A DNA stretch of 64,000 nt from Desulfatiglandales bacterium (GTDB lineage: Bacteria > Desulfobacterota > DSM-4660 > Desulfatiglandales > Desulfatiglandaceae). The translations under genes and the position numbers were made by a program. Where the stretch lies: assembly GCA_963662465.1 (NCBI GenBank), contig OY759599.1, positions 8,064,001 to 8,128,000 on the forward strand, in the 5' to 3' direction. Shown one piece after another: positions 17,765-40,450 of this stretch (within the stretch, counting starts at the first letter, position 1; the number at the start of each line of letters is the position of its first letter). The notes under the pieces are model-generated. The model worked only from the letters and a program-made list of their open reading frames with translations, was not told where the DNA came from and ran no database searches.

Positions 17765-18118
17765 GGGGGCGAAACGGTTTCGACGGGGATAACTGAAGCT
17801 TAGATTGCATACCGAGGTTCCGACTGCTCGTTAAACGGTTGGGCGAAACACAAACGCAGACGATTACGCGTATGCTCTAGCCGCATAAATGGCTAGCGTC
17901 TTACCGGTCTTTGCCTGCGAGACCGGATAAGGCGTCGACTAGTAGGCTAGCCGATCCCTTCTACCTGTGAAACGGTGAGGCGAAAATAAATACAGGTTAG
18001 TCTTTGGCCGGCTTGCTCAGTTGCGACCCCAAAGGCGAAGTTTAGATACTGGGCTATGTATGTAGAGATCTGAGTGGAATATTTTCGGACGCGGGTTCGA
18101 CTCCCGCCGCCTCCACCA
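17765..18118 (+). ncRNA. ssrA: tmRNA; tag peptide ADDYAYALAA* at 17856-17888
   Basis: 5' GGGGGCG..TTCGAC, 3' GGGTTCGACTCCCGCCGCCTCCACCA, internal tag ORF ending ALAA. Confidence 0.97.
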
Positions 18119-19808: not shown

Positions 19809-19820
19809 TCCGATGCCTTT

Positions 19821-20897: not shown

Positions 20898-20998
20898 TTT
20901 CTCCTCCGCTCAGTGAAAAGGCCTGAACGAACCTCCCTAACAGGAAGGTTCAAAGCTTTCACCACATTAAGCGGATGAAAAAAGGGATGCATTTCACC

Positions 20999-23756: not shown

Positions 23757-23779
23757 GTATCCCCCCCTTTTTTATGTCC

Positions 23780-25336: not shown

Positions 25337-25418
25337 TCCCTGAGCCCCTTTCACGTTCAATAAGATCCAGTACCTCTTCCAAACCGCCTGCAACACCGGA
25401 AGAGAGAACTGTTTCCAC

Positions 25419-25535
25419 ACCGTATCCACCATCTTACAGAGAGAGGCCTATATCGGGACCATGGTCTACAACAAGGTCAGCAAGGTCCCGGGCACCGAAA
25501 AAAGAAAGAGAAATCCGGAATCAGAATGGGTGAAT
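25419..25535 (+). pseudogene. Fragment of a large serine recombinase (recombinase domain)
   Basis: Frame reads TVSTILQREAYIGTMVYNK...KRNPESEWV. Confidence 0.6.
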
Positions 25536-25639
25536 GGGATTGTTTACGAATCAACCTCCGGAGGATTGTTTCGCACGAAAAATTCAGGGGCCTGAATTGT
25601 TAGTGCAACAACAAAAAAATAACCGCGTAATCTGTGAAA

Positions 25640-25988
25640 TGCGCCTGTCGGAGATGCCGCTAAGCGGTGCCCCGTTAAATTGGTGGAACCACAGCGTATT
25701 TATCTGGGGTGCCAAGAAAAGCATCAAGAGGGCAATGGCCGCTGAGTGCAGCCGGAAACTGGGCTGTAAGGCCAAGCAGGAAACCCAACGACGATGTCGA
25801 CCTCTAAAAGATGGTGAAAGCCTTTAAGCAGGATTGCAGAAAATGGGCGATGGACCTTCTTTAACAACAGCGGAATCGGGATTCCCTGTGCATGCCTTAC
25901 GACAAGAGTATCGGGAGAGCCGTACAGTGGAAATCTCTACCTACGGTTCGACGAGGACCTCGGGATTAAACCCCCGAGGTTACTCTAC
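25640..25988 (+). mobile_element. ORF-less or internally deleted group II intron
   Basis: 5' TGCG; domain V GAGCCGTA..GAAA..TACGGTTC (25917-25949, AGC triad); domain VI hairpin ending TACTCTAC. Confidence 0.8.
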
Positions 25989-26021
25989 CGGTTCACACAA
26001 CTAAATCCCTTTTTGCTTCTA

Positions 26022-26073
26022 CCTGCCCCGTGAAACCGTTGTTGCAGTTGTTTCACTGGGGTTTAACCGGGGT
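26022..26073. repeat. REP-like hairpin CCTGCCCCGTGAAA..TTTCACTGGGGT with a second right arm; family copies at 45618-45656 and 59777-59828
   Basis: Conserved arms with variable loop in three copies. Confidence 0.75.
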
Positions 26074-26472
26074 GCCAGAAACCCCTTGTCGTTAATAACC
26101 GGGTACAGACCTCAACATAACAACCACCAAGAGTCAACGGCAGATTTGACCCCATGCCCTTTGATGCACATCCCAAGGTCACTGAAGGTGTAAAACCACG
26201 ACCCGGCATCGAGTGGCAGGTGACTTCAATATAAGGACGTTATAACCAACACCCAAATAACGGCAATAAGGAAGGCCTGACCCCATCATCACAACCCTCT
26301 AACGCATCCAAATCCGTGTAACCCAAAGGGCGGAGCTGTCTTCAAGATTTGACTGCAAAACAAAACCAAAAACCGTGTCATCCGTGAAATCCGCGCCAAA
26401 AAAACTAAAGAAACCACCAACGTCCCCTGCACCAATTTGTGTTTCCGCTTTTCACATATGAGGTAACCAGTC

Positions 26473-26697
26473 ATGAAAAGTCGCATCTTTGATAAACATT
26501 TTCCGACGATTCTTGGGGCAGGCAGTGTAATGGAAATCTGGCCAACGGAAAATTATGATCGTTATATGCCAGACCCTATTCCGGCAAATAGCCTCAAGGG
26601 ATATTGGATGAACGTTAACTCGTACGTGTGCAAAGGCATTGTGCAATATGAGTTGGATTGCCATACCAGACTAGCCGAAAGTCTAAATGATGAATAA
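26473..26697 (+). CDS. Small hypothetical protein
   Basis: GAGG RBS; lies between two CCCC-ending motifs. Confidence 0.5.
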   Translation: MKSRIFDKHFPTILGAGSVMEIWPTENYDRYMPDPIPANSLKGYWMNVNSYVCKGIVQYELDCHTRLAESLNDE

Positions 26698-26989
26698 TAA
26701 GCGAAGCCTGACCCCCTAATTTTATGGTCTCGTCCCCCTACCTTTCCGAATACGAACTGAAGAAGAGGGAGTTTAGGGATCGTACGAAAAGGTACGCTTC
26801 GGCTGTTAGTGCCAACGTTCCCCATTACTCCCCAAATGACAAAGAGAGCAAAATACCCTCAGTCCATGAGAAATGCAGTTGCGTAGCAACGTCCCCCATT
26901 CCACAGACCTCAGGAAATTGGGAACCGCTATAAAAATCTGTTGTCATTTTGGCGTCATTAATTTATCCTGTTTGTAAAGAAGGAGGTGT

Positions 26990-27280
26990 ATGATGACGCT
27001 GAACAAAACAGAAGAAAGAATTCCTGCCCGAATGCCCCATGAGGTTTACGAGCGAATTGTTGCGGCTGCCCATACTGTCGGAGCCACACTGAACCAGTTT
27101 CTTGTTCAGGCGGCTATTGACAAAGCGAATGAAATTCTGGAAAGGGAGCGCATTATTTCTCTTACTTCAAAAGACGCAGATACGCTTTTTCATCTGATCG
27201 ATAATCCGCCTGAACCGAATGATCATCTCAAAGCAATTATGAATCAGAGAGAGGCAGAGGCGCTTTTGTGCCGGAAATAG
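26990..27280 (+). CDS. DUF1778 family RHH antitoxin
   Basis: ERIPARMP..TLNQFLVQAA..NPPEPN; AGGAGG RBS. Confidence 0.88.
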   Translation: MMTLNKTEERIPARMPHEVYERIVAAAHTVGATLNQFLVQAAIDKANEILERERIISLTSKDADTLFHLIDNPPEPNDHLKAIMNQREAEALLCRK

Positions 27281-27771
27281 GTTCTCTTTTTCGCCATCAT
27301 GACCGGGCCGGATTTGATTGCGGAGTTCCAGCACTGAACGGTTTTCTCAAGTTCACGGCCAGGCAGCATGGTGATAAAGGGATTTCACGCACATTTGTTT
27401 TAACCGGGCCGGAAAACCCATCCATCATTCTGGGCTATTTTACACTGACACTCTGTGAAGTCAAAACAGAACATCTTCCAGCCTTATATGCCAGGAAATT
27501 TCCGAAACACGGGCTTCCAGCCGTTCGACTGGCCCGCCTGGCCGTTGACACGCGATTTCAGGGTCGTGGATATGGTGGACGTCTTCTTGCCGAAGCGATC
27601 CATCGGACGGTTTTGATTGCGGAACATGCAGGCGTGATTGGACTGTTTGTGGATGCGAAAGATGAAACTGCCTGTCTGTTTTATCAACGGTATGATTTTA
27701 AGTCTCTTCCGGACAATATCCGGAAATTGTTTCTGCCGATTGAAACCCTACGAAAAGGGTCCCTGCGATAA
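27268..27771 (+). CDS. GNAT acetyltransferase toxin (AtaT/TacT type)
   Basis: FDCG..LN.FL, LARLAVD..FQGRGYG, VDAKD, FY; overlaps the antitoxin. Confidence 0.9.
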   Translation: MPEIGSLFRHHDRAGFDCGVPALNGFLKFTARQHGDKGISRTFVLTGPENPSIILGYFTLTLCEVKTEHLPALYARKFPKHGLPAVRLARLAVDTRFQGRGYGGRLLAEAIHRTVLIAEHAGVIGLFVDAKDETACLFYQRYDFKSLPDNIRKLFLPIETLRKGSLR

Positions 27772-27789
27772 CTTCAAAAAGAAGGACCC

Positions 27790-27952
27790 GGAAGCCATCA
27801 GGAAGAACCCGGAAAAGTTCCCGGCAGATTTTATATTCGAGTTGAACGAAAAGGAACAGGATTTTTTAAGGTCGAAAATTTCGACCATAAAGACAGGAAG
27901 GGGCAAGCACGGAAAATTTGCCACAAAGGCTTTCGCGGAACAAGGCATTTGA
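27790..27952 (+). pseudogene. ORF6N (KilA-N-like) domain fragment
   Basis: AIRKNPEKFPADFIFEL...AFAEQGI, no start. Confidence 0.65.
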
Positions 27953-28261
27953 TATTCGACAAAGGAAAAACAGGCGCGGTATGGAAAACACGGCAAATAG
28001 AAATATGAGAGAAACGCAAGAACGCATGGGCGTCCCCAAGGGCCCCAGAATATGCTGGTCAGCTGGGTGAGATCCATGCCCTGGGTTTATAATGCGTGCC
28101 CTAATCAAGTCCTTAACCCCTAAATCTTAAATCCTAATAACCACAATAAATAAACCCTGACCCCCTAATAAAAAATCCGTGTAATCCGTGAAATCCGCGC
28201 CAAAAAAAGAAAAAACAGTCATCCCCAACCCCAATAACGACAATAAAGAAAGCCTGACCCC

Positions 28262-28480
28262 CTGATTGTTATGACCCATGTCGCAGGTTTTCCATTTTCC
28301 ATCGTGAACTTTCACAGTATTTATGCCGCGCCCAAAGATTATCTCCTGGAACTGGCCGGCAGACAGAACCTACGCATTCGGCTTCGGCCGCCATACCGGG
28401 AAAACCTGTCGCAGGCCTTTGGCAAGTATTTTATGCGTGTTGGGCTTCCTCTGGATATTCGAGCGTTTGCTCGCAGTTAG
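28262..28480 (+). pseudogene. 3' fragment of a conserved hypothetical gene
   Basis: LRPPYRENLSQAFGKYFMRVGLP; begins right after GCCTGACCCC. Confidence 0.5.
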
Positions 28481-28539
28481 ATAGGATGTCCCCATTATAA
28501 TACAAGCGTAAACTAGTGAAACAAGCAACGTCCCCCATT

Positions 28540-29288
28540 ATTTTTTTGACAGGTTCGAAATAGTTACATTCAAGTATCCAGTCGAATGTTGTACTTTGAC
28601 CTCCACCTCTCAGATTTATAGGAATTTCCTTTAAGTAGCCATTTACTATTATTTTTGTGCCAGGGCATGACCTCTTTTCAGATATTGGCGATATAAGGTC
28701 TTGTTTTAAGAAAATTTTCATTTTTTTTGGTTGTTCACCACCGTCAAGGGTTTCAATATCTTCTTCAATCGTCATATGTTGGGCATCTATCAATTCTTTA
28801 GAAAGCATTTTGAATTTACCCTTACGCCCACATCCACATCTTGAAGGCTCTCTAAATTTCTGTTCAAGTTGAAGAAGTGGTATGATATTTCCACATGAAG
28901 GGCATTCAAATTTTGATGTTACAACTTGAGGTCTAATGTCGCTTTTTTGTCGAATAGTTCCTTGAACACAAATGAATTTTTCTAAATGTTTGCTTCGTAA
29001 GTCTCTGATTCGCTTTTTCTGACTTTTTGGAATATTTTTAATCCTTACAATTACTTCAATATTATTTTTGATAGCGAGATCAAATAATGAAATTGATATA
29101 CTTACTGCCTTAAGGGATTCCTCAGGATTTTCAATCAGGTCTTCTGCTAAATTGATATTCTGTTTTGATATTTCATTAAAATCCATAACGAAATATCTAT
29201 CCCCTTTTCTTACAGATTCTATAAGGGTGTCATAATAGAGGATTTCTATTAATTTTCTGTATTCACCTATTTGTTCTTGGGTTTCCAT
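28540..29288 (-). pseudogene. mcm: Archaeal-type MCM helicase, N-terminal domain only; ATPase domain missing
   Basis: IRDLRSKHL, VQGTIRQKSDIRPQ, FECPSCG..CGCG zinc finger, DAQ, GGEQP, PGTKIIVNG; similarity stops at the CAACGTCCCCCATT motif. Confidence 0.88.
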
Positions 29289-30034
29289 TGTATAATTTGT
29301 TTAGGAGATAATTTTCTATAGCATTCTTTATGCAGAAATACTCCATTGTACACTTCTGAATAATCTTTTGAGTCTTTGTGAATAGGGCGCTTACATTTAG
29401 CACAGTCACCTATCTTGTTTTTTTCTATATCAGCATCTTCATTGATTTCTCCGATTTTAGATTTGTATATTTTATTGAAAGAGATTTTTCTTCTTTCGAT
29501 ATTCGCATAGTCACTTTGATAAAGATATTTGCCATATATCTCATCTAAGAATTGTTCAACAACTGGTTTGAAATCATCAGAGAGTTTGAATAGTTTTGTT
29601 TTTTTATAACTTCTTTTGCCATTTGGATGAATCATATTCCATGTTTCTCTTATAGCTTTATTCTCATTAGAGTCTTCATGCAATTCTTCAACAATATTCT
29701 TCGTTTCAAAGTGAAATAATAAATCTCTTAGGTCTTTGCCATAACCTAGATTGAAATGCATTGTTAGTTCCCAAAGGCTTGAGACTCCAACGTTATATAG
29801 GACATAAACTAATTTGCTTTTCGTTTTATCAAGGAATATAGAAAGGATATCTCTGAAGTTTCTTTCAAAATTCAGATTTATATTTTGATCATTATGGATT
29901 TCGAGTTTTGAGACAAAATCACAGATTACACATACCCTTCTCTGAAATTTGTTTTCAGTGGGTGTGATTGTTGCCACCTCTTTCAAATTTATCCGGCCTT
30001 GCAGAGAAATCAGTAATTTCTTCAGGATCAACAA
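29267..30034 (-). CDS. Hypothetical protein with C-terminal CxxC..HxxC zinc finger (start uncertain)
   Basis: AT-rich ORF overlapping the mcm start; CAKC..HKEC. Confidence 0.6.
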   Translation of the reverse strand: MLILKKLLISLQGRINLKEVATITPTENKFQRRVCVICDFVSKLEIHNDQNINLNFERNFRDILSIFLDKTKSKLVYVLYNVGVSSLWELTMHFNLGYGKDLRDLLFHFETKNIVEELHEDSNENKAIRETWNMIHPNGKRSYKKTKLFKLSDDFKPVVEQFLDEIYGKYLYQSDYANIERRKISFNKIYKSKIGEINEDADIEKNKIGDCAKCKRPIHKDSKDYSEVYNGVFLHKECYRKLSPKQIIQWKPKNK

Positions 30035-30185
30035 GCCAAATGAAATTAGATCCTTTTATGAATAGTTTATTATCTGAAGTAATATTTTTTAGAATTCCGA
30101 TTGCTTTTCTTTTATTCTTTCTTTCAGCAACAACAAACATTCCTATAAAGTTTCTGTACTGCTCAACTAAACTATCATTTGTCAA
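29955..30185 (-). CDS. Small hypothetical protein, possibly Sm/SH3-like
   Basis: GAGGTG RBS before TTG; beta-strand-like pattern. Confidence 0.55.
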   Translation of the reverse strand: MTNDSLVEQYRNFIGMFVVAERKNKRKAIGILKNITSDNKLFIKGSNFIWLVDPEEITDFSARPDKFERGGNNHTH

Positions 30186-30689
30186 ATATACACCTCTAAA
30201 CTTATCTTATCTAAAACAGTAAAATATATATACTCATTACCCTTAGAATTCACTAAGTTGCTCAATCTTAATGTTTGAGTGATTTAGCCTTGTTCTTTCA
30301 GGGTGGGATCAAGACCAGGGCTGGGTGCTCTGGTCTGCTTTTTTTTAATATCATCTGGAATATCTACAGTTACTATACTTCCTATTTCAACAACATCATT
30401 ATACATTGGTGGGACAGAAATAAATTTTCTTGTGTTTCCATGTCTATCCTTTCCAGCTTTGATTGCCTTTGCCTATAGCGCTCAGATAAACTGGTACAGG
30501 TCTGCTCAGATAAATTGATACACCAATTTTTTTTGGATTTCCCTACCTCTAAAGATAAAAACCCTTTACAGAAAAAGATACCCCTCGTAATACCCTATAA
30601 TTTTGAGACCAATCAAAAAGAAAGAGGTATCACGAGGGTATGCCCAATTACATCAGTGACATAAGTGAGCAACTGGCTTTTTTATAATA

Positions 30690-31235
30690 GAAATCCAAGG
30701 CCATTTTCAATTTATTTCTGGCTGGTACCGGGATGGAGAGGTCCGTGGTCTTGTTGCTCGCTATTATTTTGTTGTTCGCTCGGTTCTCAAGGAGAAACCC
30801 CACCTTAAAAACTGCCTGACTCGTTGCAAGCACTGCGGCATCTTTTTTATCACCCATCCCCGGAATGCCGGCCGAAATAATCTTGGTTGCCCCTTTGGCT
30901 GCCGGGAAGCTCACCGCCGAAAAAAATCCACGGAGAGAAGTACGGAGTATTACCGTAATAAAGAAGGCAAGGAAAAGAAAAAGGCCTTAAACGAGAATCG
31001 CGGCAAAAAGGACAGCCCCCCGAAAGAAAAACAGGCGGAAACAATAGATGATGAACGTGAAGTGGTTGATGGCATTGTTCATCATGTTCGGATGGTTACG
31101 AGCTTGATTGAAGGTCGTAATGTAAGCCTGGATGAAATTTATCGCATGCTGAACAATCCGATGAGACAACACAGCATCGACTCTGCGGAAAAATCGTTTT
31201 ATGGTGGCCCTGGCTCTCGAAAAACTCCCCCGTGA
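30690..31235 (+). CDS. Cys-rich IS21 accessory reading frame; start not evident, possible frameshift in the T-run near 30680
   Basis: Open frame RCKHCGIFF..GCPFGCRE..ending TPP* just before the parB-like gene; absent from the ORF track. Confidence 0.6.
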   Translation, partial: EIQGHFQFISGWYRDGEVRGLVARYYFVVRSVLKEKPHLKNCLTRCKHCGIFFITHPRNAGRNNLGCPFGCREAHRRKKSTERSTEYYRNKEGKEKKKALNENRGKKDSPPKEKQAETIDDEREVVDGIVHHVRMVTSLIEGRNVSLDEIYRMLNNPMRQHSIDSAEKSFYGGPGSRKTPP

Positions 31236-31244
31236 GGAAGCAAA

Positions 31245-32141
31245 ATGGTCGATCAGATAGAAATTTCCAGTTTTGATTTACGATATGAGGATTGCCGTTT
31301 GAAATCAGCAGGGACGGAAAGAGCCCTTTTGACCTCTGTGTCGGAAAACGGTATCCGGGATCCGCTCCAAGGGGTGGACATTGAAGACCACAAAATTTTG
31401 CTCGATGGCTTCAAAAGATACCGGTGCGCAAAGAAATTGCATATCGAGATTGTGCCTTATCGGTCGATGGGGCGCGATGAGGCGAGTGGCATCATTGATC
31501 TGATCCGGTTATCAAACACAAAATCCCTTAACATTCTGGAGCAGGCCCGTTTAATCGATGAACTGAAGCGAGGTCACCAGATGAGTCATTCAGATATCGC
31601 CGGACTGCTTGAAAAAAGCAAATCCTGGGTCAGCATGCGTTGCGGCATTATGGGTGAGATGAGTGAAACCGTGAAGAAAGAAGTTTTTGCCGGAAAATTT
31701 CCGGTCTATTCATTTATGTATACTCTGCGGGGGTTCATACGTATGAACACCGTTAAAAAAAGTGAAATTGATGAATTTGTTCGGTCCGTGTCAGGCAAAA
31801 AGCTGAGCATACGGGATATTGATCTGTTGGCAAATGGCTATTTCAAGGGTTCGGAGGAATTCCGGGAACAAATCAGAACCGGCAATCTTTCCTGGGGACT
31901 TGAGCGATTAAAACATCATAGCGCAATAAGCGATGGTCTGAGTAAGCGGGAAAAAACCCATTTGAAAACCCTCGAAACCATCTTGAGATACATACAGCGA
32001 TTTATGGCGCAACAAAATGTTTCCTCCATGAGCAACGCATTTGCAGCCCAGGCCAACATGTTGTCGGGCGATATTATACAACTTTTTGATGCTTTTAAAA
32101 TAGCAATGGAAGCCTTTCATGATACCACCGAACAAACGTAA
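31245..32141 (+). CDS. ParB N-terminal domain protein
   Basis: SVSENGIRDPL, LLDGFKRY, HTH SHSDIAGLLEKSKSWVS. Confidence 0.82.
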   Translation: MVDQIEISSFDLRYEDCRLKSAGTERALLTSVSENGIRDPLQGVDIEDHKILLDGFKRYRCAKKLHIEIVPYRSMGRDEASGIIDLIRLSNTKSLNILEQARLIDELKRGHQMSHSDIAGLLEKSKSWVSMRCGIMGEMSETVKKEVFAGKFPVYSFMYTLRGFIRMNTVKKSEIDEFVRSVSGKKLSIRDIDLLANGYFKGSEEFREQIRTGNLSWGLERLKHHSAISDGLSKREKTHLKTLETILRYIQRFMAQQNVSSMSNAFAAQANMLSGDIIQLFDAFKIAMEAFHDTTEQT

Positions 32142-33603
32142 AGCGATTTTCCTGCTGCATCAGGAGGGCATGGGCGTACGGGAGATCGCTCGCAGCATAC
32201 ACATCAGTCCCACCACCGTAATGGAAATTATTGGCCAAAAGGGCGAGATGCCTGAAATCATACGTAAAGATAAAATCAAGATTGATTCGGCGCTTTTGGC
32301 AAATCTTTATGAAACATGTCAGGGCCGTGCGCAAAGAGTGTATGAAAAACTGACCGAAGAAGAAGGGATTGATGTTGCCTATTCAACCTTGACTCGAATG
32401 CTCCGGGAACAGGGTTTGAGCCATAAAAAATCCGACCGGTGTCAACAGGTTCCGGACGTGCCCGGAGCTGAGATGCAGCATGACACGTCGCCTTATCGTA
32501 TAAAACTGGGCAAAGAAATAGTGTTGGTCCAAGGGAGTCTTTTATATTTTCGGTATTGCAAAATTCGCTATCTGAAATTCTATCGTTCATTCAACCGGTT
32601 TCAAATGAAATGCTTTTTTCATGAAGCCCTTATGTACTGGCAATACGCGGCAGCGAACTGCATCATCGATAATACGAATCTGGCCCGTTTACGGGGCACC
32701 GGCAAAGATGTCGTCATCGTTCCTGAAATGGAACGGTTCGCCAAACAGTACAGTTTCAAATTTGTATGCCATGAAATAGGGCATGCAAACCGAAAAGCAG
32801 GCAATGAGCGGGGTTTTTATACAGTGGAAACCAACTTTTTTCCAGGCCGTTCTTTTGAAAACCTTGAAGACATGAATTACCAGTCTTACATATGGGCGAC
32901 TGATCGATCGGCCAACAGGCCCACCGGAAAGACGCGGCTGATCCCCTCCGTGGCTTTTGAATCTGAAAAACCATATCTCAGAAAAATGCCGCCATATGTC
33001 GAACCGCCCTACCTTGTTCATAAAAGAAAGATCGATCAGTACGGCTACGCCGCGGTTAATGGGAATTACTATTGGATTCCGGGAACGCGACGTCATGACG
33101 TCAAAGTCCTGCAATATGCCGATTATTTAGATATTTATCACCAAAGAAAATTCTTGGGACGCTATGTTTTGCCGCCTGACGGCGTCAGGAATGACGTCAT
33201 CACTCCCGAGGGGGTAACAAAACCTTCTCACAAACCCTCGCAACGAAAAAAGCCAACGGCGCGGGAAGAAAACATCCTGCGATCAGATAAGGCCATTAAT
33301 GATTATTTGAATTTCGCTTTACCCAAAAGTGGTAAGGCCAGGCATCACTTCATTCGAGCGCTTTTCAGCCTATATCGAAAAACCGCTCCTACGGTTTTTA
33401 TAAAAACGCTACAACGAGCCTTGAAATATCGCATTAAGGACATCAAAGTCATTGAAAACATAGTTGTTTTGATTTTAAGAGACGCTAGTATCGAATTGGG
33501 GACACCTGAAATTGAACCGGATTTCACGAAAAGGGATGCCTATATCGAGGGCTGTTTTACCGATGAGCCGGATCTTTCCATTTATGAGGATGAAAATGAA
33601 TGA
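32119..33603 (+). CDS. istA: IS21 transposase
   Basis: N-terminal HTH, PGAEMQHD, IDN, KAGNER, NGNYYWIP. Confidence 0.9.
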   Translation: MIPPNKRKAIFLLHQEGMGVREIARSIHISPTTVMEIIGQKGEMPEIIRKDKIKIDSALLANLYETCQGRAQRVYEKLTEEEGIDVAYSTLTRMLREQGLSHKKSDRCQQVPDVPGAEMQHDTSPYRIKLGKEIVLVQGSLLYFRYCKIRYLKFYRSFNRFQMKCFFHEALMYWQYAAANCIIDNTNLARLRGTGKDVVIVPEMERFAKQYSFKFVCHEIGHANRKAGNERGFYTVETNFFPGRSFENLEDMNYQSYIWATDRSANRPTGKTRLIPSVAFESEKPYLRKMPPYVEPPYLVHKRKIDQYGYAAVNGNYYWIPGTRRHDVKVLQYADYLDIYHQRKFLGRYVLPPDGVRNDVITPEGVTKPSHKPSQRKKPTAREENILRSDKAINDYLNFALPKSGKARHHFIRALFSLYRKTAPTVFIKTLQRALKYRIKDIKVIENIVVLILRDASIELGTPEIEPDFTKRDAYIEGCFTDEPDLSIYEDENE

Positions 33604-34342
33604 TGAGTTGATAAAGATGCTGAAATACCTTCGGCTCAATGTGTTGATTGAAAACTGGGATCGGTATCTCAAAATCGGCGCAAAAGGGGATTATTCCCAT
33701 GCGCGGCTGTTGGAATATGTTGTTTCCGAGCAATATCAAATTAAAAAGGAAAACGCCCGCAAGATGAGAGTCAAACGAGCCGGTATTCCAGAAAAATTTG
33801 TTTTGGAGACCTTTCCTTTCAAGCGCCAGCTTAATCTCAATAAAAAGAGAATCGAATCCATATACGACGGTTTTGATTACATGACCAAATCCCGCAATAT
33901 CATCTTCATTGGACCGACGGGCACGGGAAAAAGCGGGCTGGCCACGGCGTTTCTGATCCACGCTATCAACCAGGGCTACAACGGGCTGTTTATCACTTTC
34001 CCTGAACTGGTGGAACGTCTTTACCAATCGATGGCGGATAATACTCAGGCAAAGACCATCAAGAAGCTGTTATCCTATGATTGTTTGCTGATTGATGAGC
34101 TTGGTTATATTCAAATAGAATCGGTTCAAGTGGGTCTATTTTTTAATCTAATGCAAAAAAGACATAAAAACAAAACGACCCTCATTACATCCAACCTCGG
34201 ATTCGAAAAATGGAATTCCTTTCTTAAGAACAAGCATCTCACAGCCGCCCTGATCGATCGACTGACTGAAAGCAGTCATATCATCAATATGAAAAACTGC
34301 ATAAGCTTAAGGCAGAGGCTTGATGAGGTTCCGGAGACATGA
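33596..34342 (+). CDS. istB: IS21 helper ATPase
   Basis: GPTGTGKS, LLIDELGY, ITSN, ALIDRL. Confidence 0.93.
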   Translation: MNDELIKMLKYLRLNVLIENWDRYLKIGAKGDYSHARLLEYVVSEQYQIKKENARKMRVKRAGIPEKFVLETFPFKRQLNLNKKRIESIYDGFDYMTKSRNIIFIGPTGTGKSGLATAFLIHAINQGYNGLFITFPELVERLYQSMADNTQAKTIKKLLSYDCLLIDELGYIQIESVQVGLFFNLMQKRHKNKTTLITSNLGFEKWNSFLKNKHLTAALIDRLTESSHIINMKNCISLRQRLDEVPET

Positions 34343-34833
34343 CAAAACTTTTTTCGGCAAAGGAGCTTTACAGCGTGAGAAATGACATCCCGATTTCCGG
34401 TCTGATTGAAAACGTGCTGAATATACCGGCTCGCACAACTGAAGGGGTTTTCAGATTTCTTTGTCCTGTATGCGGGGAATTTAACACGGCGGTTAATCCA
34501 AAAACCAATCTGGCCAGATGTTTCTACTGTAAAAAAAACTTCAACACCATTGATCTGGTGATGATTGTCAAAAAGGCAAATTTTGTAGAAGCCGTCCACT
34601 TTCTGAAAGCACATAAAAATAGATGTCAAAGTCATTGTGTTTCCAAAAAATCGGAAGATCACACTCAATCTCCCCAGCATATTGCCGACATTGTAAAATC
34701 AATCATGCCCGCCAAACCGGATTCTGACCATCCAGAATCCATTGAAAGCATATCGAAGCGGGTTTTATGCATCGAGAAGATGCTTGAGCAAATGACCCAT
34801 CAAATGGAAATTATAGTAAAAACAATCACATAA
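34339..34833 (+). CDS. CHC2/primase-type zinc-finger protein
   Basis: FLCPVCGE..ARCFYC..NTIDLV. Confidence 0.75.
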   Translation: MTKLFSAKELYSVRNDIPISGLIENVLNIPARTTEGVFRFLCPVCGEFNTAVNPKTNLARCFYCKKNFNTIDLVMIVKKANFVEAVHFLKAHKNRCQSHCVSKKSEDHTQSPQHIADIVKSIMPAKPDSDHPESIESISKRVLCIEKMLEQMTHQMEIIVKTIT

Positions 34834-34914
34834 CTCATTTCCTGGAATTTCATGCGAAAATAGGGTGTTCTGTTTTGATAGTCGTGTAACGCTAATCAAA
34901 TTTTGGAGGTGGAA

Positions 34915-35112
34915 ATGCGAGGCGGAAAGCGTGCTGGAGCCGGTCGAAAAAAGAAGCCGGATCACTTGAGACGTGAGTTGGTGACAATTCGACTACCGAG
35001 GTGGATGATTACACAGCTTAAAAACAATGGTGAAATTGGCTATTTGATTGAGGATCTACTGGCAAAAAAGGGTTCCCTGAATCCACCTGATGATTATGAT
35101 TTCAATAGCTGA
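34915..35112 (+). CDS. Small DNA-binding protein
   Basis: RGGKRAGAGRK then RHH-like VTIRLP; GGAGG RBS. Confidence 0.65.
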   Translation: MRGGKRAGAGRKKKPDHLRRELVTIRLPRWMITQLKNNGEIGYLIEDLLAKKGSLNPPDDYDFNS

Positions 35113-35539
35113 AATCGACGGACCCATTCATCTCTTTTCTACGATTTGATTGAAAACGCCTTCCAACCGACATCTGAAATAGCCCCAGGTTGTATCCAAC
35201 ACTGAAGTCCCCCACAAGTCAGCGTGTTTGTCCATAGCTTAGCACGGCTTTTCGGATCGAACCTGTCGCAAATATCCAGGTCAAATTTCGATACGGCCTG
35301 CTGGTTTGTAGTCGTTTGCTCAGCCGTTCCGGCATCAATCTCCTTCTCCAACTTAAGCCATTTTTCCGCTGCGGGGTAGCAGCAAAGGCGGGGTTCTATT
35401 CAATTCTTGGGGCGGGGTGAGCATAGCTGCAGGGTAGTCGTGCGAACGAACGTATCAGTTTTCATGAGCAGAAGTGTATCAGTTTATCTGAGCGCCATAG
35501 CCTTTGCTCTAAACCTCATACACACACGATAAACACAGC

Positions 35540-35556
35540 ATATATTTAAACTTTCC
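35540..35556 (-). promoter_or_regulatory. Archaeal-type BRE-TATA promoter GGAAAGTTTAAATA
   Basis: About 25 nt upstream of the ATG of the IS-split gene, no RBS. Confidence 0.65.
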
Positions 35557-35839
35557 TAACTCCTTTTAAGTGGTTAATAAACTCTACGCCATTTTACGTA
35601 GAGTGTTTTTGCAACATGTTATAAAAAACTATCAAAAAGTATGATTTTTGCCGGAAAATGGACTCTACGGAATTATCACGTAGAGTCCTATTTTGGCCTA
35701 TTTGTTGCCTCTGAAAAATAACTCTACGGTCAAAACACGTAGAGTGGTTTTTATGCATTTACCGTGTTTAACTTAACTACTACTCTACGTATTTTCTACT
35801 AGTAGTTAGTCTACGTTACATAGATATATATTATATAAT

Positions 35840-37366
35840 ACTTGAGTTTTCGAAAAAAAGTAATGGACACGGTAGGAACACTGTGAGAAAATACCTTGGT
35901 GTAGTGTTGTCATTTGCTATAATACCAGGGGAAACTCATGCAAATTCCGTGTGCCAGACGGCTTCCATTTCTTGTTTCTGGGTTGGCATTTCTACAACCG
36001 GCCTTGACGAACGCCCAATTCTACAATCTAACGCTGGTTGCAACAGCTTTGGTTTTGGGCGCAAAATTCAGTCTTTCAGCAATCAATCGCATGTGGCTTG
36101 AAGAAAAATGCGTGAGCACCTTATCGTATTTCTTCTCAGATGCTAAATTCTGCACAGCTGAAATGCAACATCTTTATGCTTTACAAATCATGCATTTATA
36201 CAAACTTCAAAGTGGCTATTACTGTATCGATGACACCATGAAACACCACACAAATTTCTGTAAATGGATCCACGGTGTCTTTGTTTTATTCGATCATGCG
36301 CTCAAGACAAACCTCAAAGCGACCTGTATCGTAGTCCTTTATTACAGCAATGGTGGAATAATCAAATTTCCCATTGCTCATCGAATCTATTACCAGGATA
36401 GCAATAAGATGCCTTGGCAGAAAGGGAAAAAGCATATTTGCAAACCGAAATACGAATTGGCAATTGATATGCTTCAATGGGCTATCGACAGGGGTTTTCC
36501 CAGAGGCATCGTCCTTGCTGACTCCTGGTTCGGGAGCGGTCCATTTGTAAAAGGCCTTAAAGGCTTGAAGTTGAGTTATGTTATTGAAATAAAGTCAACT
36601 TTAACCGTAAGAATCCCATGCAAAGAGCCTAAACTCACCCCCAAGGGTAAGATATCTAAGAAGCAGCATGACCTTATCAAATTGCCCAATGTTTTTCAGT
36701 CTACATCATCCTTCAGCACATGCGGTTTTGCCGCCAATATGGGCATTGGCAAAAAGGAAAAAGTCCTGTATCATACCAAAGTTATCACGGGGAACCTGAA
36801 CTCTATTGCCGGAAAACATAGGATTGTTCAAAGTGTTGACCCAACCAAACAAACCACCAAATATCTTCTCACCAATGAACTCACCTGGGAGGCCACCAAG
36901 ATTATTTCCGCTTATAGCAACAGATGGGTTATCGAGGAATTTTTCAGGAATGCGAAGCAGTTAACCGATATGGAGGGAGCCACTATTAGGAGCGAGCAAG
37001 GCGTGACATTAGCGTTATGCCTGGTGTCCTGGATTGACTCCCTCCTCCATCTGGAAAACTATAAGCAAAGCACTGCTGGAAAATTGCCAAAGGAGCCATT
37101 AACGGTTCCTTCGATAGTCCGTTTGGCTCAATACGATAATCTTGAAACTTTTCTGGATCGACTTCAAAAGGAAGATGGGCTTCTCAAAAAGTGGTGTGAT
37201 GTTGAACAAAAAGGTTTGGTCAGAAAGCGGAAGAAATCTAAAGAGTTGATAAAGCTACAAGATTTCTCTGAAGACCGTTCCCGGAAACAATTATCAAAGG
37301 CTGCATAAAGCAAATATTGCGCCAAAAGATCAAATTGTCAAAGAACTATTTTTCGAAAACTCAAGT
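35840..37366 (+). mobile_element. IS701-like (IS4 superfamily) insertion sequence, target duplication ATAAT
   Basis: IRs ACTTGAGTTTTCGAAAAA / TTTTTCGAAAACTCAAGT; ATAAT on both flanks. Confidence 0.88.
35938..37308 (+). CDS. DDE transposase, IS701-like
   Basis: CIDDT, LADSWFG, RWVIEEFFRNAKQ. Confidence 0.88.
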   Translation: MQIPCARRLPFLVSGLAFLQPALTNAQFYNLTLVATALVLGAKFSLSAINRMWLEEKCVSTLSYFFSDAKFCTAEMQHLYALQIMHLYKLQSGYYCIDDTMKHHTNFCKWIHGVFVLFDHALKTNLKATCIVVLYYSNGGIIKFPIAHRIYYQDSNKMPWQKGKKHICKPKYELAIDMLQWAIDRGFPRGIVLADSWFGSGPFVKGLKGLKLSYVIEIKSTLTVRIPCKEPKLTPKGKISKKQHDLIKLPNVFQSTSSFSTCGFAANMGIGKKEKVLYHTKVITGNLNSIAGKHRIVQSVDPTKQTTKYLLTNELTWEATKIISAYSNRWVIEEFFRNAKQLTDMEGATIRSEQGVTLALCLVSWIDSLLHLENYKQSTAGKLPKEPLTVPSIVRLAQYDNLETFLDRLQKEDGLLKKWCDVEQKGLVRKRKKSKELIKLQDFSEDRSRKQLSKAA

Positions 37367-37474
37367 ATAATATACTCTACGGAATTATCGCGTAGAGTTA
37401 AATCCTTATTTTTTGATGAAAATGTCAAAATCCACCAAAAAGTATATATACTCAAGTATGTATGAATAAAAAAT

Positions 37475-38686
37475 ATGGCAGAAATTGATATCCTTGCACC
37501 TTTCCGAAACATCAGCCCAGGCCAATTCATATCCAGATATTCTGATTGGATTCTTTTTATACTCCTGATCTTCTTTTTTTGGTCCGTTATCACAATCTCA
37601 CTCAAAAAACGCTTTGGTGATTCAAAGGCATTTAGAATCCTAGCAACCTCTACAGCCCTATTATTATCAGTTAGTACATACTATATGATTTACAAAGGCA
37701 AACTTAACATATCTCTAGAAGGGCTTGGTATGTTTGGAGCCATGCTCGTCCTGATTGTGATATTTTTCATTCTTTTTGCTCTACAAAGAAACTTTAATAT
37801 GAAAACTAAACTTTCTCTTCCATTGGGATTTGTCCTGTTTTATTTGTCGCTAGTTAGACTAACACCTAACATCATGAATGATATCCAAAATGCATTTCCA
37901 TTTGCAAAAGCAATTATGGTAGGACTATTTTTATTTTCATTATATAGGGTGATAGTCGAGTTCATAAAACATTCAAAAGGAGATTTGAAGTTAGAAGCAC
38001 AAAAAATAGAAAATATTCGAATCCCACCAAAAGATGTGCCAGAGATCAACCATGAGCTGAAGGATGACAAGAAGGAAAGAAATCTGCTGAAAGGCAAAAC
38101 CTTGAAACTTACAAAGATGGAAATCAATACTGTTGATGATATAGAAAACCTACTAGGCCACCTAATTAAATTGATTAAGGAGAAAGGCAAAAATATCAGT
38201 CAGGATGAAGCCTTGCAGATCTCCAACTATCTTAGGCAATTGTCTAACAAAGAAAATATTCTCATCAGAAGTATGCCTATTTTGAAAAGGCAGGCAGAAA
38301 TCTTCAAATCAAAACATAGAAAAGATATCAATGAACTCCAAAAGCGATACCAGGAAGCCAAGGATAATCCTAAACAACAGGAAATAATAAAAGAAGAAAT
38401 CTCATTCCAAAAGCGAATGATTGAAGTGCTGGACTTCATCGAAACCTATGAAAATAGAATCGTAGAATTCACACAATCACTCAACCAAACAATCTCTAAG
38501 TCTATGATTAAGCTCAGAAGTATTTACCCTCATGAATGCGTGGAATATCTGGAATCTGCCAGAAAATCGATTGAAGGCATGAAACATATTTTCAAAAAAC
38601 AAAAAGAGCTTGAGAAATATGTCCTCTCGCTGAACAAGAAAACAATTAAGGATCTGAAGAAAGAAAAAAAGGCAGATCAATCTTAA
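37475..38686 (+). CDS. Membrane protein: about 5 N-terminal TM helices and a long coiled coil
   Basis: Hydrophobic N-terminus, K/E-rich C-terminus; preceded by CAAAAAGTATATATA (BRE-TATA-like). Confidence 0.75.
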   Translation: MAEIDILAPFRNISPGQFISRYSDWILFILLIFFFWSVITISLKKRFGDSKAFRILATSTALLLSVSTYYMIYKGKLNISLEGLGMFGAMLVLIVIFFILFALQRNFNMKTKLSLPLGFVLFYLSLVRLTPNIMNDIQNAFPFAKAIMVGLFLFSLYRVIVEFIKHSKGDLKLEAQKIENIRIPPKDVPEINHELKDDKKERNLLKGKTLKLTKMEINTVDDIENLLGHLIKLIKEKGKNISQDEALQISNYLRQLSNKENILIRSMPILKRQAEIFKSKHRKDINELQKRYQEAKDNPKQQEIIKEEISFQKRMIEVLDFIETYENRIVEFTQSLNQTISKSMIKLRSIYPHECVEYLESARKSIEGMKHIFKKQKELEKYVLSLNKKTIKDLKKEKKADQS

Positions 38687-39342
38687 AATTAGAACAACGC
38701 TCAACGATTAATCTTTTGCCTTCTGATTTGGCACGCCAGACATCTGTTTGACTCAATGCATTGTTAAGAAGGAAGTTTCTTTGTAGAAATTGGTTTCGTG
38801 CTTTCAATTTTAGTCACCTCAAATTGCCAAAATAGGCATTATAGTTTTTACCGAAAGAAGGGTTTAAATTGCTCACCTTTTTTCTATTCTCATCCTCAAT
38901 AACGAGGCAAATATTTCCGTTCTGAATCCTATATTTGTCGATTACTTTGCCATCAATTGTCTGCAATGAATTCATATAACCCATTCTTGTCGAAGCCTTT
39001 AGTTGTTTGGGAAATACTGGAAGCTTTTAAATCTTTCGGTTTAGGGTGAGCAGCCTTGGATTTTCGAGGTATGGTTACAAAATGTGATTTCTTGTCTATG
39101 TATTTAAGCGATTATCAGCTGAAAGGGAAGCAGCATTGGAATATCTTTCGCAGAACTACCCTCACCTGCCCGCCAATGCCTTTCTGGGCGTAATGGTTCA
39201 GACAGCTTAAATGGCAAAAAAGTGATCCAGCATCATAGATTGTGTATAATGGCGATGGCAGGCGGAGATGGTAAAAGAAGTGCAAAAGATCCTGGCCCGA
39301 TCGGAAACCGAGGTTTTATCCTGAAATTTTATCGTTTTTTCC

Positions 39343-40103: not shown

Positions 40104-40450
40104 ATCAACATCTTTTGCCCCCTCCAGAGGATTGAAGTTCATCTCGTCTATGCTTACTGAATAAAACAGCAGAACTTCAACCCAAAACCCAAAACTCAAA
40201 ACCCAAAACCGCTGTTCCAATGCCCAAAACCAAAAACTCAAAACCGCTGTTCCAATGCCAAAAACCCAAAACCCCTAACTCAAAACTCAAAACCCAAAAC
40301 CCAAAACCGCTTTTTCGTAATCCAAAGAGCGGAGCTATGTGCGAAGTATCTTAAGAACCATGATCTTACTGCCCCCTGCCCCCTGACAACTGCACCCTTT
40401 AACAACGACAATAAGGAAAGCCTGACCCCCTTACACGCGCCCCACCTGAA

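Follow-up and report, generated by a model that had tools for sequence, protein, structure and literature searches.

A truncated MCM gene of archaeal type within a foreign low-GC block of a Desulfatiglandales chromosome

Features of the locus

The window analyzed here, a 64,000-nucleotide stretch of DNA from a Desulfatiglandales bacterium (contig OY759599.1, positions 8,064,001 to 8,128,000), contains a low-GC block (28543 to about 39050; 33% GC) residing in an 8.16-Mb bacterial chromosome of 49.5% GC. The block begins 10 kb into an island integrated at a tmRNA gene. Features of the island and the block are as follows.

17765..18118, plus strand: tmRNA (ssrA), found by ARAGORN; Rfam RF00023, 197 bits
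18206..19510, minus strand: tyrosine integrase; Phage_integrase E 2e-17, Arm-DNA-bind_2 E 6e-17
19821-20897: AEP PrimPol gene; AEP-TOTE E 9e-35, PADLOC PrimPol E 2e-29
21561-23756: HerA/TrwB-like ATPase gene
28279..28542, no strand: small repeat unit, the right end of which truncates mcm at the N-C linker
28431..29288, minus strand: truncated mcm, 285 aa, with the MCM N-terminal domain in codons 1 to about 247 (28546-29288)
29267..30034, minus strand: ORF255, directly upstream of mcm with a 22-nt overlap; C-terminal CxxC...H..C motif
29955..30185, minus strand: ORF76, a small conserved gene upstream of ORF255
30284..30472, minus strand: 3' part of a split small ORF, 68 aa if intact; first codons at 35501-35525
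30473..35500, plus strand: IS21-family element, 5028 bp
35582..37397, no strand: palindromic box array, four boxes CTCTACG-N8-9-CGTAGAG and an AT-rich stretch
35838..37369, plus strand: IS4-like element of 1532 bp encoding a 456-aa DDE transposase
37475..38686, plus strand: ORF403, 5-6 predicted membrane helices and a C-terminal helical domain
38814..38984, minus strand: small ORF at the right edge of the block, 56 aa (69 aa in copy B, the second genomic copy)

An earlier, sequence-only reading of this DNA had proposed that the block is foreign and amounts to about 4 kb once its insertion sequences (IS) are removed, and the composition of the locus bears this out. Without its IS, the block measures 3898 bp at a GC of 0.329; the genome stands at 0.495 and both flanks at 0.48. 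A foreign origin of this DNA is supported. The right edge, previously set at about 39100, is diffuse: the block is real, but its boundary may lie anywhere from 38690 to about 39100, and at 39004 the two genomic copies go from 99% to 95% identity.

The closest relatives of the whole block are three unbinned metagenome contigs (L116, L117, and L118), which have in common the gene order ORF76-ORF255-mcm and whose shared proteins are 56-92% identical. ORF255 has five non-self homologues (53-79% identity), lies directly upstream of mcm in all three contigs, and has a poorly predicted fold (pLDDT 56); searches of Pfam, PHROGs, and PADLOC gave no match. ORF76 is 87-92% identical in L117 and L116 and has no family match, and homologue searches found no labelled relatives for either gene. 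In the second genomic copy, ORF76 is disrupted by an IS200/605 element. The 68-aa ORF, split in the window by the IS21-family insertion, is whole in copy B (L113:14969-15175) and has a 46-aa homologue in L117, with no family match among profiles that included PHROGs and PADLOC. ORF403 makes up a third of the block and is transcribed away from the mcm operon. It has 53 non-self homologues. A 64% identical copy stands beside the full mcm of L118, the only one of the three contigs to carry it. The model of ORF403 (pLDDT 74) found no match in the PDB at E<=1e-3 with Foldseek. PADLOC recognized no defence family in MCM-N, ORF255, ORF76, ORF68, ORF69, or ORF403.

Between ORF403 and the mcm operon lies the box array, with boxes at 35582, 35663, 35722, and 37375, 8-bp arms, and the IS4-like insertion splitting it. 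The window holds four box matches, whereas none of 100 shuffles held any, and the genome has nine in total: four in each of the two block copies and one elsewhere. Homology extends to the arrays of L117 and L118, while the L116 contig ends short of this region. Two boxes with identical arms occur in L117, and four boxes of the form ACTCTCCG-N8-9-CGGAGAGT occupy the homologous place in L118, where both arms have changed in step. This compensated change makes the array look like an origin or operator, and it is best described as a candidate for either. The paired arm changes are equally compatible with a hairpin and with a dimer-binding site. Four boxes and an AT-rich stretch beside an mcm operon, a putative origin-type layout, are conserved in L117 and L118; the boxes of the block are unlike the ORB-like TTCCACAGGA boxes found at Orc1 in the host.

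The truncated mcm gene

The sequence-only reading had recognized an MCM N-terminal domain in this gene, cut ahead of the AAA+ domain at a short motif, and both observations held up. The ORF (...FECPSCGNIIPLLQLEQKFREPSRCGCGRKGKF...LDGGEQPKK...) encodes the helical subdomain, C4 zinc finger, and OB fold, and nothing past the first third of the helicase. Pfam MCM_OB (PF17207) matched residues 94-221 (E 7.1e-24), while MCM_N (PF14551) scored below its cut-off (E 0.0014; 19.5 bits vs 24.9), the corresponding helical subdomain A region aligning with relatives that do exceed it. In an alignment of 16 sequences, the zinc cysteines C129, C132, C151, and C153 show little or no variation. A phmmer search with residues 1-249 against 1.84 billion representatives yielded 2638 matches at E<=1e-3, and the top matches (E 1e-86, 55% identity) aligned over residues 1-248; the best solved relative is the MCM N-terminal domain 1LTL (E 1e-25). 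Inteins occur in 9 of the 17 closest representatives scanned and are lacking in the fragment.

Where full-length relatives run on through ...NYFEPINEDFGELKISEEE... into the AAA+ domain, the window's gene departs from them. The motif CAACGTCCCCCATT lies at 28526-28539, DNA homology with these relatives ends at 28546, and the last 36 codons are unrelated, being read from the small repeat unit up to a stop. The terminal 34 bp of that unit (28504-28537), which include the CAACGTCCCCCATT motif, are found in identical form at C1:7039460-7039493 as the end of an element with a Bac_DnaA_C ORF, and at C1:7039493 they adjoin a DegT gene that is truncated at profile position 150/360. In a metagenome contig (X5 record 25), the sequence of 28279-28542 is present between unlike flanks.

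The P-loop ATPase (PF00493), lid, and winged helix are absent from the ORF, and a genome-wide PF00493 scan produced seven weak matches (best 26 bits) and no true MCM AAA+ part. The same scan was positive in 14 of 14 control genomes, bacteria included, which marks these matches as generic AAA+ proteins. A product that has no ATPase cannot act as a helicase, and the gene is an MCM fragment rather than a helicase gene. The window's branch has 33 synonymous and 9 non-synonymous codon changes, and that of the intact relatives 24 and 5; relaxed constraint was not seen on the former, and the 249 codons of the fragment contain no stop or frameshift. With the frame open and constraint not visibly relaxed, decay of the fragment itself is undemonstrated and a retained function is possible.

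The island, its second copy, and the IS insertions

The island is a tmRNA (ssrA)-integrating genomic island: the last 27 nt of ssrA (18092-18118) form its left attachment repeat, and the integrase gene lies 88 bp past ssrA. The 27-nt repeat recurs at C1:29146, the exact start of a second island segment, and no third copy was found in the search for one, which leaves the far end of that segment undefined. Window positions 18092-30116 correspond to C1:29146-41170 at 99.99% identity, and further pieces are 99% identical. The block is present twice in the genome, with the same mcm truncation in both copies. The copies carry different IS, four insertions altogether, each with an empty site in the other copy, and in both of them the operon is interrupted upstream of ORF255.

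The two IS that the sequence-only reading had seen in the window are corroborated by terminal repeats and by the empty sites in copy B, and the further copies it had suggested looking for were found, one for each IS. Members of the IS21 family encode an IstA transposase and an IstB ATPase, carry terminal inverted repeats, and generate target duplications of 4-8 bp. The insertion at 30473-35500 belongs to this family: it has ParB-like, IstA-like, IstB (PF01695, E 3.4e-48), and CHC2 zinc-finger genes together with a 69-aa ORF, and it is bounded by 21-bp terminal inverted repeats (CTATAGCGCTCAGATAAACTG) and a 7-bp target duplication (CCTTTGC). The 494-aa ORF upstream of IstB matches HTH domains only in Pfam. 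The second copy, 99.6% identical, starts at C1:6813482, has its right end at C1:6822866, and shows a 5-bp target duplication. The insertion at 35838-37369 is an IS4-like DDE element, with Pfam matches of its transposase to DDE_5 (E 1e-13) and DDE_Tnp_1 (E 4e-11), terminal repeats of about 19 bp, an AT-only and hence ambiguous target duplication, and a 99.9% identical copy at C1:2143319-2144850.

A contig of the X1 run covers 28508-30116 with a single mismatch; independent short-read contigs thus contain the join of mcm to the repeat end. Between 30116 and 30472, the second-copy variant is the only one seen in X1, and none of its contigs bridges the IS21 junction at 30472/30473; as these contigs show presence only, the window's IS-bearing copy is unconfirmed by them.

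Intact relatives and MCM phylogeny

Gene order in the metagenomic relatives is ORF403, box array, ORF76, ORF255, mcm. Their intact MCM proteins, of 686 or 693 aa, have a P-loop and lid (L116 and L118), and that of L118, a 73.8-kb contig with a GC of about 0.35, also has MCM_WH_arc.

Among 580 confirmed mcm loci from 185,579 species genomes, the best 80 all come from archaeal MAGs, most of them with Woesearchaeota, Nanoarchaeota, or Nanobdellota in the title, and the fragment is 48-55% identical to DPANN MAG proteins over 249 residues. In full-length trees, the group of L116 (with L117) and L118 is sister to four DPANN-labelled rows (SH-like support 99 in FastTree with 112 rows; SH-aLRT 99 in IQ-TREE LG+G4 with 42 rows), and FastTree places this group inside further DPANN-labelled groups with supports of 98, 94, 81, 98, and 100. 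On the 248 columns of the N-terminal domain, placement is unstable, with the fragment nested in DPANN rows by FastTree and beside them, with supports of 17-74, under an IQ-TREE mixture model. The sequence-only reading had pointed to a likeness to DPANN MCMs and had suggested BLASTP and phylogeny, of the mcm product among others, as a check; the archaeal best loci and the nesting of the intact relatives mean that this guess has now passed a test. Judged by sequence, the helicase of the module is DPANN-derived. Within the block, archaeal affinity is demonstrable for the mcm gene only.

Origin of the block

The reading we favour, with a probability of about 0.78, is that the block is a replication module, now decayed, that came from a foreign mobile element of low GC and is carried as passive cargo in the tmRNA island. 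In its intact form, seen in the metagenomic relatives, the module consists of an intergenic palindromic box array with an AT-rich stretch; an operon encoding two small proteins together with ORF255 and a full MCM helicase of archaeal type; and the membrane/coiled-coil gene ORF403, transcribed in the opposite direction. The element's lineage would have taken its MCM from Woesearchaeota-type DPANN archaea. In the host genome, mcm lost all that follows the N-C linker at the end of the small repeat element. The island segment was copied or integrated a second time, probably after this loss, and four different IS landed later in the two copies. The module can no longer act as a replicon. That it formerly replicated an element, and that truncation preceded duplication, we infer.

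As for the donor, it is conceivable that the block came straight from a DPANN plasmid or virus and that L116-L118 are archaeal elements, a cross-domain capture to which we give somewhat less than even odds. The MCM lineage is nested in DPANN MCMs, with sister rows 60-61% identical over their full length, and the GC of the block (0.33) and of L118 is near the median of 0.36 for the best 80 of 580 loci, as opposed to 0.495 for the host. No species-representative genome has an MCM of the block's clade, the best of the 580 loci being 55% identical, which is compatible with an unbinned extrachromosomal element, and L118 encodes nearly all ORFans, with weak terminase and HNH matches. In addition, the commonest phylum in the Atlas cluster nearest to ORF403 is Nanobdellota (a lead only), and archaeal elements acquiring host MCM are cited in PMC5862659. 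ORF403 speaks against this capture: its labelled homologues (42-46%) are from a Desulfobacteraceae and a Thermodesulfobacteriota bacterium, both Desulfobacterota, and full-length copies (E 1e-106) occur in two genomes of the host's family, whereas 401 DPANN-phylum genomes gave just 15 weak matches (<=31% identity, best E 3e-14). Furthermore, neither ORF255 nor ORF403 lies within 6 kb of mcm at any of the best 80 DPANN loci, among which a single weak ORF76 match was found (E 0.008), and no close MCM came from archaeal viruses or plasmids, identity reaching at most 33% in phage records, 41% in IMG/VR, and 38% in PLSDB. The capture from an archaeal element advanced by the sequence-only reading is sustained as regards foreign DNA and the archaeal type of mcm, and an archaeal element is one of two candidate donors.

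The Desulfobacterota labels of ORF403 would fit a bacterial element as the immediate donor, one of a family circulating in Desulfobacterota-type anaerobes that had recruited archaeal-type replication genes earlier and of which the window holds a dead member; this, too, is a tentative proposal that falls short of an even chance. Both the island that houses the block and the IS that entered it are bacterial. The host also carries an intact archaeal-type Orc1/Cdc6 cassette (C1:144017-145273) that encodes an initiator in a low-GC island patch, with repeated DNA boxes nearby, inverted and of the TTCCACAGGA type, around an AT-rich stretch. Orc1/Cdc6 (TIGR02928 above cut-off) was detected in four of 105 genomes of the host's family (its own, G093, G043, and G061), and all four are among the five with a full-length ORF403-type gene (G046 being the fifth), with 2.1 kb between the two genes in the host, 5.8 kb in G093, and 23 kb in G061. 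Even so, the four genomes fall in three genera and, by kinship, are not independent; G061, G043, G093, and G046 are without MCM, and the other 104 family genomes are without an MCM N-terminal domain. The low GC of the 73.8-kb L118 fits a DPANN-type host better. It is tempting, if doubtful, to regard the block and the Orc1/Cdc6 cassette as two traces of one kind of mobile element in anaerobic bacteria. Such elements might, just as speculatively, use an archaeal-type initiator and helicase at box-type origins, be marked by ORF403, and have L116-L118 as living members. If true, these contigs would be the first bacterial replicons run by a canonical, recently archaeal MCM.

Isolated MCM N-terminal domains form rings on DNA. 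Structures of such domains on their own are available (1LTL, 4POF, and others). The fragment could conceivably have been exapted as such a domain, with a role such as binding DNA as a ring or acting as a decoy against related elements, and the 285-codon frame that is open and identical in both copies, the three intact subdomains with their four zinc cysteines, and the lack of excess non-synonymous change on the window's branch agree with this idea. We consider it improbable nonetheless: searches revealed no further stand-alone copy of the lineage, the closest protein of comparable length being 58% identical and the short matches being contig-end fragments; IS cut the operon from its upstream region in both copies; the repeat end that truncates mcm also truncates the unrelated DegT gene; and the two copies differ too little for selection to be seen. 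A chimeric assembly or contamination, suggested by the alien composition of the block and by X1 contigs that break at the 34-bp repeat and do not show the window-specific IS junctions, is very unlikely. Two bacterial IS with copies elsewhere in the same chromosome have inserted into the block and duplicated their target sites, a single 8.16-Mb contig contains the block twice, with the two other IS of copy B likewise inside it, and mcm is continuous with the repeat end in a contig of X1.

Comparison with known systems

Read as the remnant of a replication module, the block resembles several known systems in part. With archaeal DPANN-type MCMs, it shares the N-terminal architecture, known from the solved domains of M. 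thermautotrophicus (1LTL), P. furiosus (4POF/4POG), and S. solfataricus (2VL6), and the 48-55% identity given above. It differs in that the window's gene stops at the N-C linker, sits in a bacterium, and belongs to a lineage that has ORF255, ORF76, and ORF403 beside it instead of the neighbours of DPANN chromosomal mcm genes.

Krupovic et al. are said to have reported in 2010 that MCM genes were recruited by archaeal viruses and plasmids. Examples of MCM on such elements include an Altiarchaeum virus, haloarchaeal tailed viruses, and a Methanomethylovorans plasmid. The likeness here lies in a cellular-type MCM, apparently from the host lineage, within a small replication module by a putative origin; the differences lie in the low identities (<=33%, <=41%, and <=38%, as listed above) and in the remnant's place in a bacterial chromosome.

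Bacterial integrated elements also encode MCM-family genes, and this much they have in common with the block. According to PMC2715239, BcMCM of a Bacillus cereus prophage is MCM-like in its AAA+ region only and is without a typical N-terminus, and PMC5862659 places MCM genes on bacterial integrative plasmids, calls bacterial MCMs "highly divergent", and describes a recent transfer from archaea as "unlikely". In contrast, the fragment in the window keeps a canonical N-terminal domain that is close to DPANN proteins.

Finally, the host's own Orc1/Cdc6 cassette, about 100 kb from the block, is likewise an archaeal-type replication gene in a low-GC patch of an island beside repeated DNA boxes. It is an intact initiator, while the block holds a broken helicase; the only neighbour that the two have in common is an ORF403-type gene, at 27% identity.

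A truncated archaeal-type helicase gene in a low-GC block

On the best-supported reading, the low-GC block in this window is the fossil of a replication module that belonged to a foreign low-GC mobile element, with a helicase of Woesearchaeota-type archaeal origin. Such a module would have been carried into a tmRNA island, broken by a repeat element and duplicated, after which both copies would have been riddled by IS.

The host genome is a single contig (C1) of 8,161,625 bp, and the window, its bases 8,064,001-8,128,000, is bacterial in build, with a tmRNA gene, TacA/TacT, IS21 and IS4 elements, and sugar-nucleotide genes. GC content runs at 30-36% across 28,543 to ~39,050, and the block minus its two insertions comes to 3,898 bp at a GC of 0.329, against 0.495 for the genome and 0.48 for each flank. 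An earlier reading made from the sequence alone had described an abruptly AT-rich block with about 4 kb of foreign DNA once two IS are removed, and both points agree with these figures. The main features are as follows:

28431-29288, minus strand: truncated mcm ORF, 285 aa, Pfam MCM_OB at E 7.1e-24
30473-35500: IS21-family element of the window copy, with a 7-bp target duplication
35838-37369: IS4-like element of the window copy
35582, 35663, 35722 and 37375: palindromes CTCTACG-N8-9-CGTAGAG, between ORF403 and the mcm operon

The claim of an MCM N-terminal domain with zinc finger, OB fold and GGEQP loop was borne out by the MCM_OB match and by the presence of the four zinc cysteines and the GGEQP loop; the Pfam MCM_N match to the 285-aa ORF was weak and below cut-off. 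Over their whole length, residues 1-248 can be aligned with the N-terminal domain of full-length MCMs. A search with the fragment returned 2638 matches at E<=1e-3 (top E 1e-86, 55% identity), and all 17 top representatives scanned carry MCM_OB and a P-loop domain, with inteins in nine and an archaeal winged helix in five.

Relatives of the block genes

The gene order of the block is conserved in three unbinned metagenome loci (L116, L117 and L118), which outside the block have nothing in common with the host genome. In L116 and L117, ORF76 is 87-92%, ORF255 78-79% and the MCM N-terminal domain 77% identical to the block's versions. L118, a 73.8-kb contig with a GC of ~0.35, is more diverged (ORF403 64%, ORF255 56%, MCM N-terminal domain 62%); nearly all of its genes are ORFans, with weak HNH and terminase matches, and no tRNA was found in it. 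The mcm gene is intact in these relatives, encoding 686 aa in L116 and 693 aa in L118, the latter with P-loop, lid and archaeal winged-helix domains. At L118:9528-9707, the operon's first small gene is replaced by an unrelated 59-aa protein with a sub-threshold DUF7557 match (E 4.8e-5).

No family in Pfam, PHROGs or PADLOC matched ORF255, ORF76, ORF68, ORF69 or ORF403. An AbrB-like identity for ORF68 was dropped, as no tool supported the resemblance. ORF255 has five non-self homologues (53-79% identity), no match in IMG/VR and a poor predicted fold (pLDDT 56); it bears no similarity to the N-terminal extension found in some MCMs (P0001), of which it had been considered a counterpart. For ORF403 there are 53 non-self homologues, ranging from 42% identity to the 99% of the second copy in this genome, and just two of them carry labels: a Desulfobacteraceae (46%) and a Thermodesulfobacteriota bacterium (43%). 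Its model (pLDDT 74) found no PDB match by Foldseek at E<=1e-3, and it had no match among plasmids. Full-length members of its family occur in 4 of 104 other host-family genomes, two of them at E 1e-106, and sit there in island-like contexts. Across 401 DPANN-phylum genomes, ORF403 gave 15 weak matches of <=31% identity (best E 3e-14), with no MCM, Orc1 or ORF255 near these loci; one of the 15 lies in a genome marked as unpublished. A language-model look-up placed it, as a lead only, in a mixed cluster that is 50% Bacteria with Nanobdellota as the commonest phylum.

Affinity of the MCM

MCM is regarded as a hallmark of archaea and eukaryotes. A scan of 185,579 species genomes with two degenerate peptide patterns taken from the MCM N-terminal domain produced 599 stretches. 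Confirmation left 580, and the best 80 of these are 48-55% identical to the window's fragment. By title, the best 80 comprise 33 Woesearchaeota, 8 Nanobdellota-rank names, 7 unplaced archaeal MAGs ('archaeon' or 'Nanobdellati archaeon') and 32 third-party 'uncultured Methanosarcinales'. The last are read as DPANN too, since they intermingle freely with Woesearchaeota rows in the tree and the genome behind one of them is ~0.8 Mb. Neither ORF255 nor ORF403 was found within 6 kb of these best 80 loci.

Trees of the N-terminal domain alone were unstable, nesting it in DPANN rows with FastTree and placing it beside the group, at low support, with an IQ-TREE mixture model. Full-length trees (672-673 columns) were read with the intact relatives standing in for the window's fragment; the trees include only rows that one long alignment piece covers, and the reduced trees omit rows marked as long or of odd composition. 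In these, L116 (with L117) and L118 are sister to four DPANN-labelled rows, 60-61% identical, with support of 99 both in FastTree (112 rows) and in IQ-TREE under LG+G4 (42 rows), and in the FastTree tree the whole assemblage sits within further DPANN-labelled groups. The likeness to DPANN MCMs that the sequence-only reading had proposed thus holds. Because intact sister genes lie inside the DPANN MCM radiation, DNA from the gene pool of DPANN archaea has found its way into a bacterial genome. Among 105 genomes of the host's family, the MCM N-terminal domain occurs in one, the host itself; a second match (E 8.7e-4, four stops) was set aside as noise.

Truncation by a repeat end

Intact relatives read NYFEPINEDFGELKISEEE onward into the ATPase domain. 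The window's gene reads ...NYFEPVKK, then 36 unrelated codons and a stop, and DNA homology to the intact relatives ceases at 28546. To the left lies a small repeat unit with its right end at 28542, whose final 34 bp (28504-28537) include CAACGTCCCCCATT, the motif at which the sequence-only reading had placed a cut before the AAA+ domain; the cut stands, and the motif belongs to the repeat's end. The same 34 bp recur exactly at C1:7039460-7039493, where they end an element with a Bac_DnaA_C ORF and adjoin a DegT gene that breaks off at profile position 150 of 360, and 28279-28542 was found between unlike flanks on a metagenome contig. On these two grounds, the repeat end, mobile or recombinogenic, is what took away the 3' two thirds of mcm. 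A whole-genome search found no MCM ATPase domain, and hence no missing half of the gene, anywhere in the genome.

The repeat family with this conserved 34-bp end cuts unrelated genes, namely mcm (28504-28537) and the DegT aminotransferase gene at 7.039 Mb, and a longer member (G000:C1:7038541-7039493) has an ORF of 306 aa containing a DnaA C-terminal HTH domain. REP-like short repeats are also very abundant in the host genome and its congeners, for example at window 28172-28208, 28236-28261 and 40175-40325 and at many genome sites, some in long tandem-like runs (C1:86288-88929, 8147985-8149141).

Between the fragment and L116, dN/dS is ~0.07, at a saturated dS. In a parsimony count that takes L118 as outgroup, 33 synonymous and 9 non-synonymous codon changes fall on the window branch, and 24 and 5 on the intact-relative branch. 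From these figures, the bulk of the divergence accrued under constraint. Either the truncation would be recent on the scale of that divergence or the fragment would still be constrained; that the N-terminal fragment retains some role is unlikely.

Duplication, insertions and read evidence

Window 18092-30116 is 99.99% identical to C1:29146-41170, and pieces 30116-30475, 35497-35840 and 37366-39004 correspond to C1:41800-44121 with 98.6-99.1% identity; beyond them to the right, likeness between the regions is ~95% as far as window 49884. The duplication starts inside the terminal 27 nt of the tmRNA gene, with a tyrosine integrase immediately following, and has the appearance of two related island segments lying one after the other at ssrA, ~109 kb apart. 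The duplicated segment is at least 32 kb (window 18092-49884 and G000:C1:29146-56484), spanning the numbering origin. Its left 12 kb is 99.99% identical and its right part, with sugar-nucleotide and toxin-antitoxin genes, ~95%, an unevenness that points to gene conversion or to related islands having integrated twice.

Both copies hold the same truncated mcm. The second (copy B) is without the two window IS, and carries an IS200/605 element within ORF76 and, close to its right edge, an element with a DDE transposase of 441 aa; each of the four insertions has an empty site in the opposite copy. The two IS insertions read from the sequence are thereby confirmed, and further copies of both elements, a check that had been suggested, are present in the chromosome. 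An IS cuts ORF255-mcm off from its upstream region in both copies. In order, the events would be acquisition and truncation, followed by duplication and lastly by four IS insertions, each independent of the others. A search of congeners for an empty site, with the right flank as query, matched nothing beyond short repeats and one small contig. At 5 kb, the IS21-family element is of unusual size, encoding IstA/IstB, a ParB/KorB-like protein, a CHC2 (DnaG-type) zinc-finger protein and a 69-aa ORF, and ~160 bp of its small-ORF region (34901-35099) recurs at more than 30 genome places at 77-88% identity.

Read-derived contigs were used as evidence of presence only. RNA runs contained no more than 0.10-0.19 of the words sampled. 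One contig of run X1 covers 28508-30116 with one letter different, joining mcm to the repeat end, which at the left edge counters the chimeric assembly that a lack of junction-spanning reads would have implied. Contigs break at the 34-bp repeat; within 30116-30472, X1 contigs carry the copy-B variant only, and none crosses the window's IS21 junction, so the window-specific insertions stay unconfirmed by reads. One X3 contig links 29010 directly back to 28071, which suggests that the repeat unit and mcm fragment are differently arranged in that sample. A contig from X4, a freshwater metagenome, matches 28546-28787 with six differences and past 28546 continues unlike the window.

A conserved box array

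Besides the four palindromes, the interval between ORF403 and the mcm operon holds a half-site as well as an AT-only stretch, the latter being where the IS4-like element is inserted. The window-type arms are ACTCTACG and CGTAGAGT; a box match occurred in none of 100 shuffles of the window, and eight of the nine boxes in the whole genome lie in the two block copies. L117 has the same arms with different spacers. L118, the locus with the replaced first operon gene, has four boxes at the homologous place with arms ACTCTCCG and CGGAGAGT, differing from the window's by one base, mirrored on both arms in every box. Judged from this pattern, the array would be a bound or folded cis element, most likely the module's origin or operator. 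A CRISPR reading was rejected because the unit loops differ between copies.

An intact Orc1/Cdc6 in the same genome

The chromosome also encodes an intact archaeal-type Orc1/Cdc6 of 418 aa (G000:C1:144017-145273; L126:12018-13274), scoring 235 bits against a cut-off of 181 for TIGR02928 and possessing Cdc6_C and lid domains. Inverted TTTCCTGTGGAA / TTCCACAGGA boxes surround an AT-rich stretch upstream of it (L126:11760-12013), and an ORF403 paralogue (27% identical) lies 2.1 kb away. The island further holds SIR2-HerA, a nucleoside deoxyribosyltransferase gene and a Replic_Relax gene, and the congener G093 has the Orc1/Cdc6 gene at 82% identity.

Orc1/Cdc6 occurs in 4 of 105 host-family genomes (the host G000, G093, G043 and G061), all four among the five with a full-length ORF403-type gene, and where the two share a contig they are 2-23 kb apart (loci L122, L147-L149; L103-L110). 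The hypergeometric figure for this overlap, ~1e-6, is a pointer only, as the related genomes (three genera) are not independent. No MCM was found in the three other Orc1 carriers or in G046 (0 of 4 family genomes searched).

Origin of the module and comparison with known systems

The sequence-only reading had proposed cross-domain capture from an archaeal mobile element. The archaeal part holds for mcm, which the trees place as DPANN-type. The block other than mcm is not visibly archaeal in character: the labelled homologues of ORF403 are bacterial, and ORF255 and ORF403 are absent near DPANN mcm genes. The host of the immediate donor may have been an archaeon or a bacterium, with roughly equal odds.

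On the reading of a fossil replication module, the fragment points to an unbinned family of elements that combine a conserved box array with a full MCM and, in ORF255, a new partner protein. The host genome adds this helicase-side relic beside an intact Orc1/Cdc6 cassette, and the presence of both in one genome makes it a testable question whether archaeal-type replication proteins can run bacterial replicons.

The closest solved structure to the fragment is 1LTL, the isolated N-terminal domain of the M. thermautotrophicus MCM, matched at E 1e-25. Within the library and terms covered by the literature search, no title or abstract opening was found on a canonical DPANN-type MCM, or a fragment of one, in a bacterial chromosome. 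Bacterial MCM-family genes are described from phages and integrative plasmids as highly divergent, with recent transfer of those genes from archaea to bacteria judged unlikely (PMC5862659), and BcMCM is described as being without the typical N-terminus (PMC2715239). Phage, plasmid and IMG/VR records gave distant MCM matches only. In contrast to the highly divergent MCM-like genes of bacterial elements, the window carries a canonical MCM N-terminal domain.
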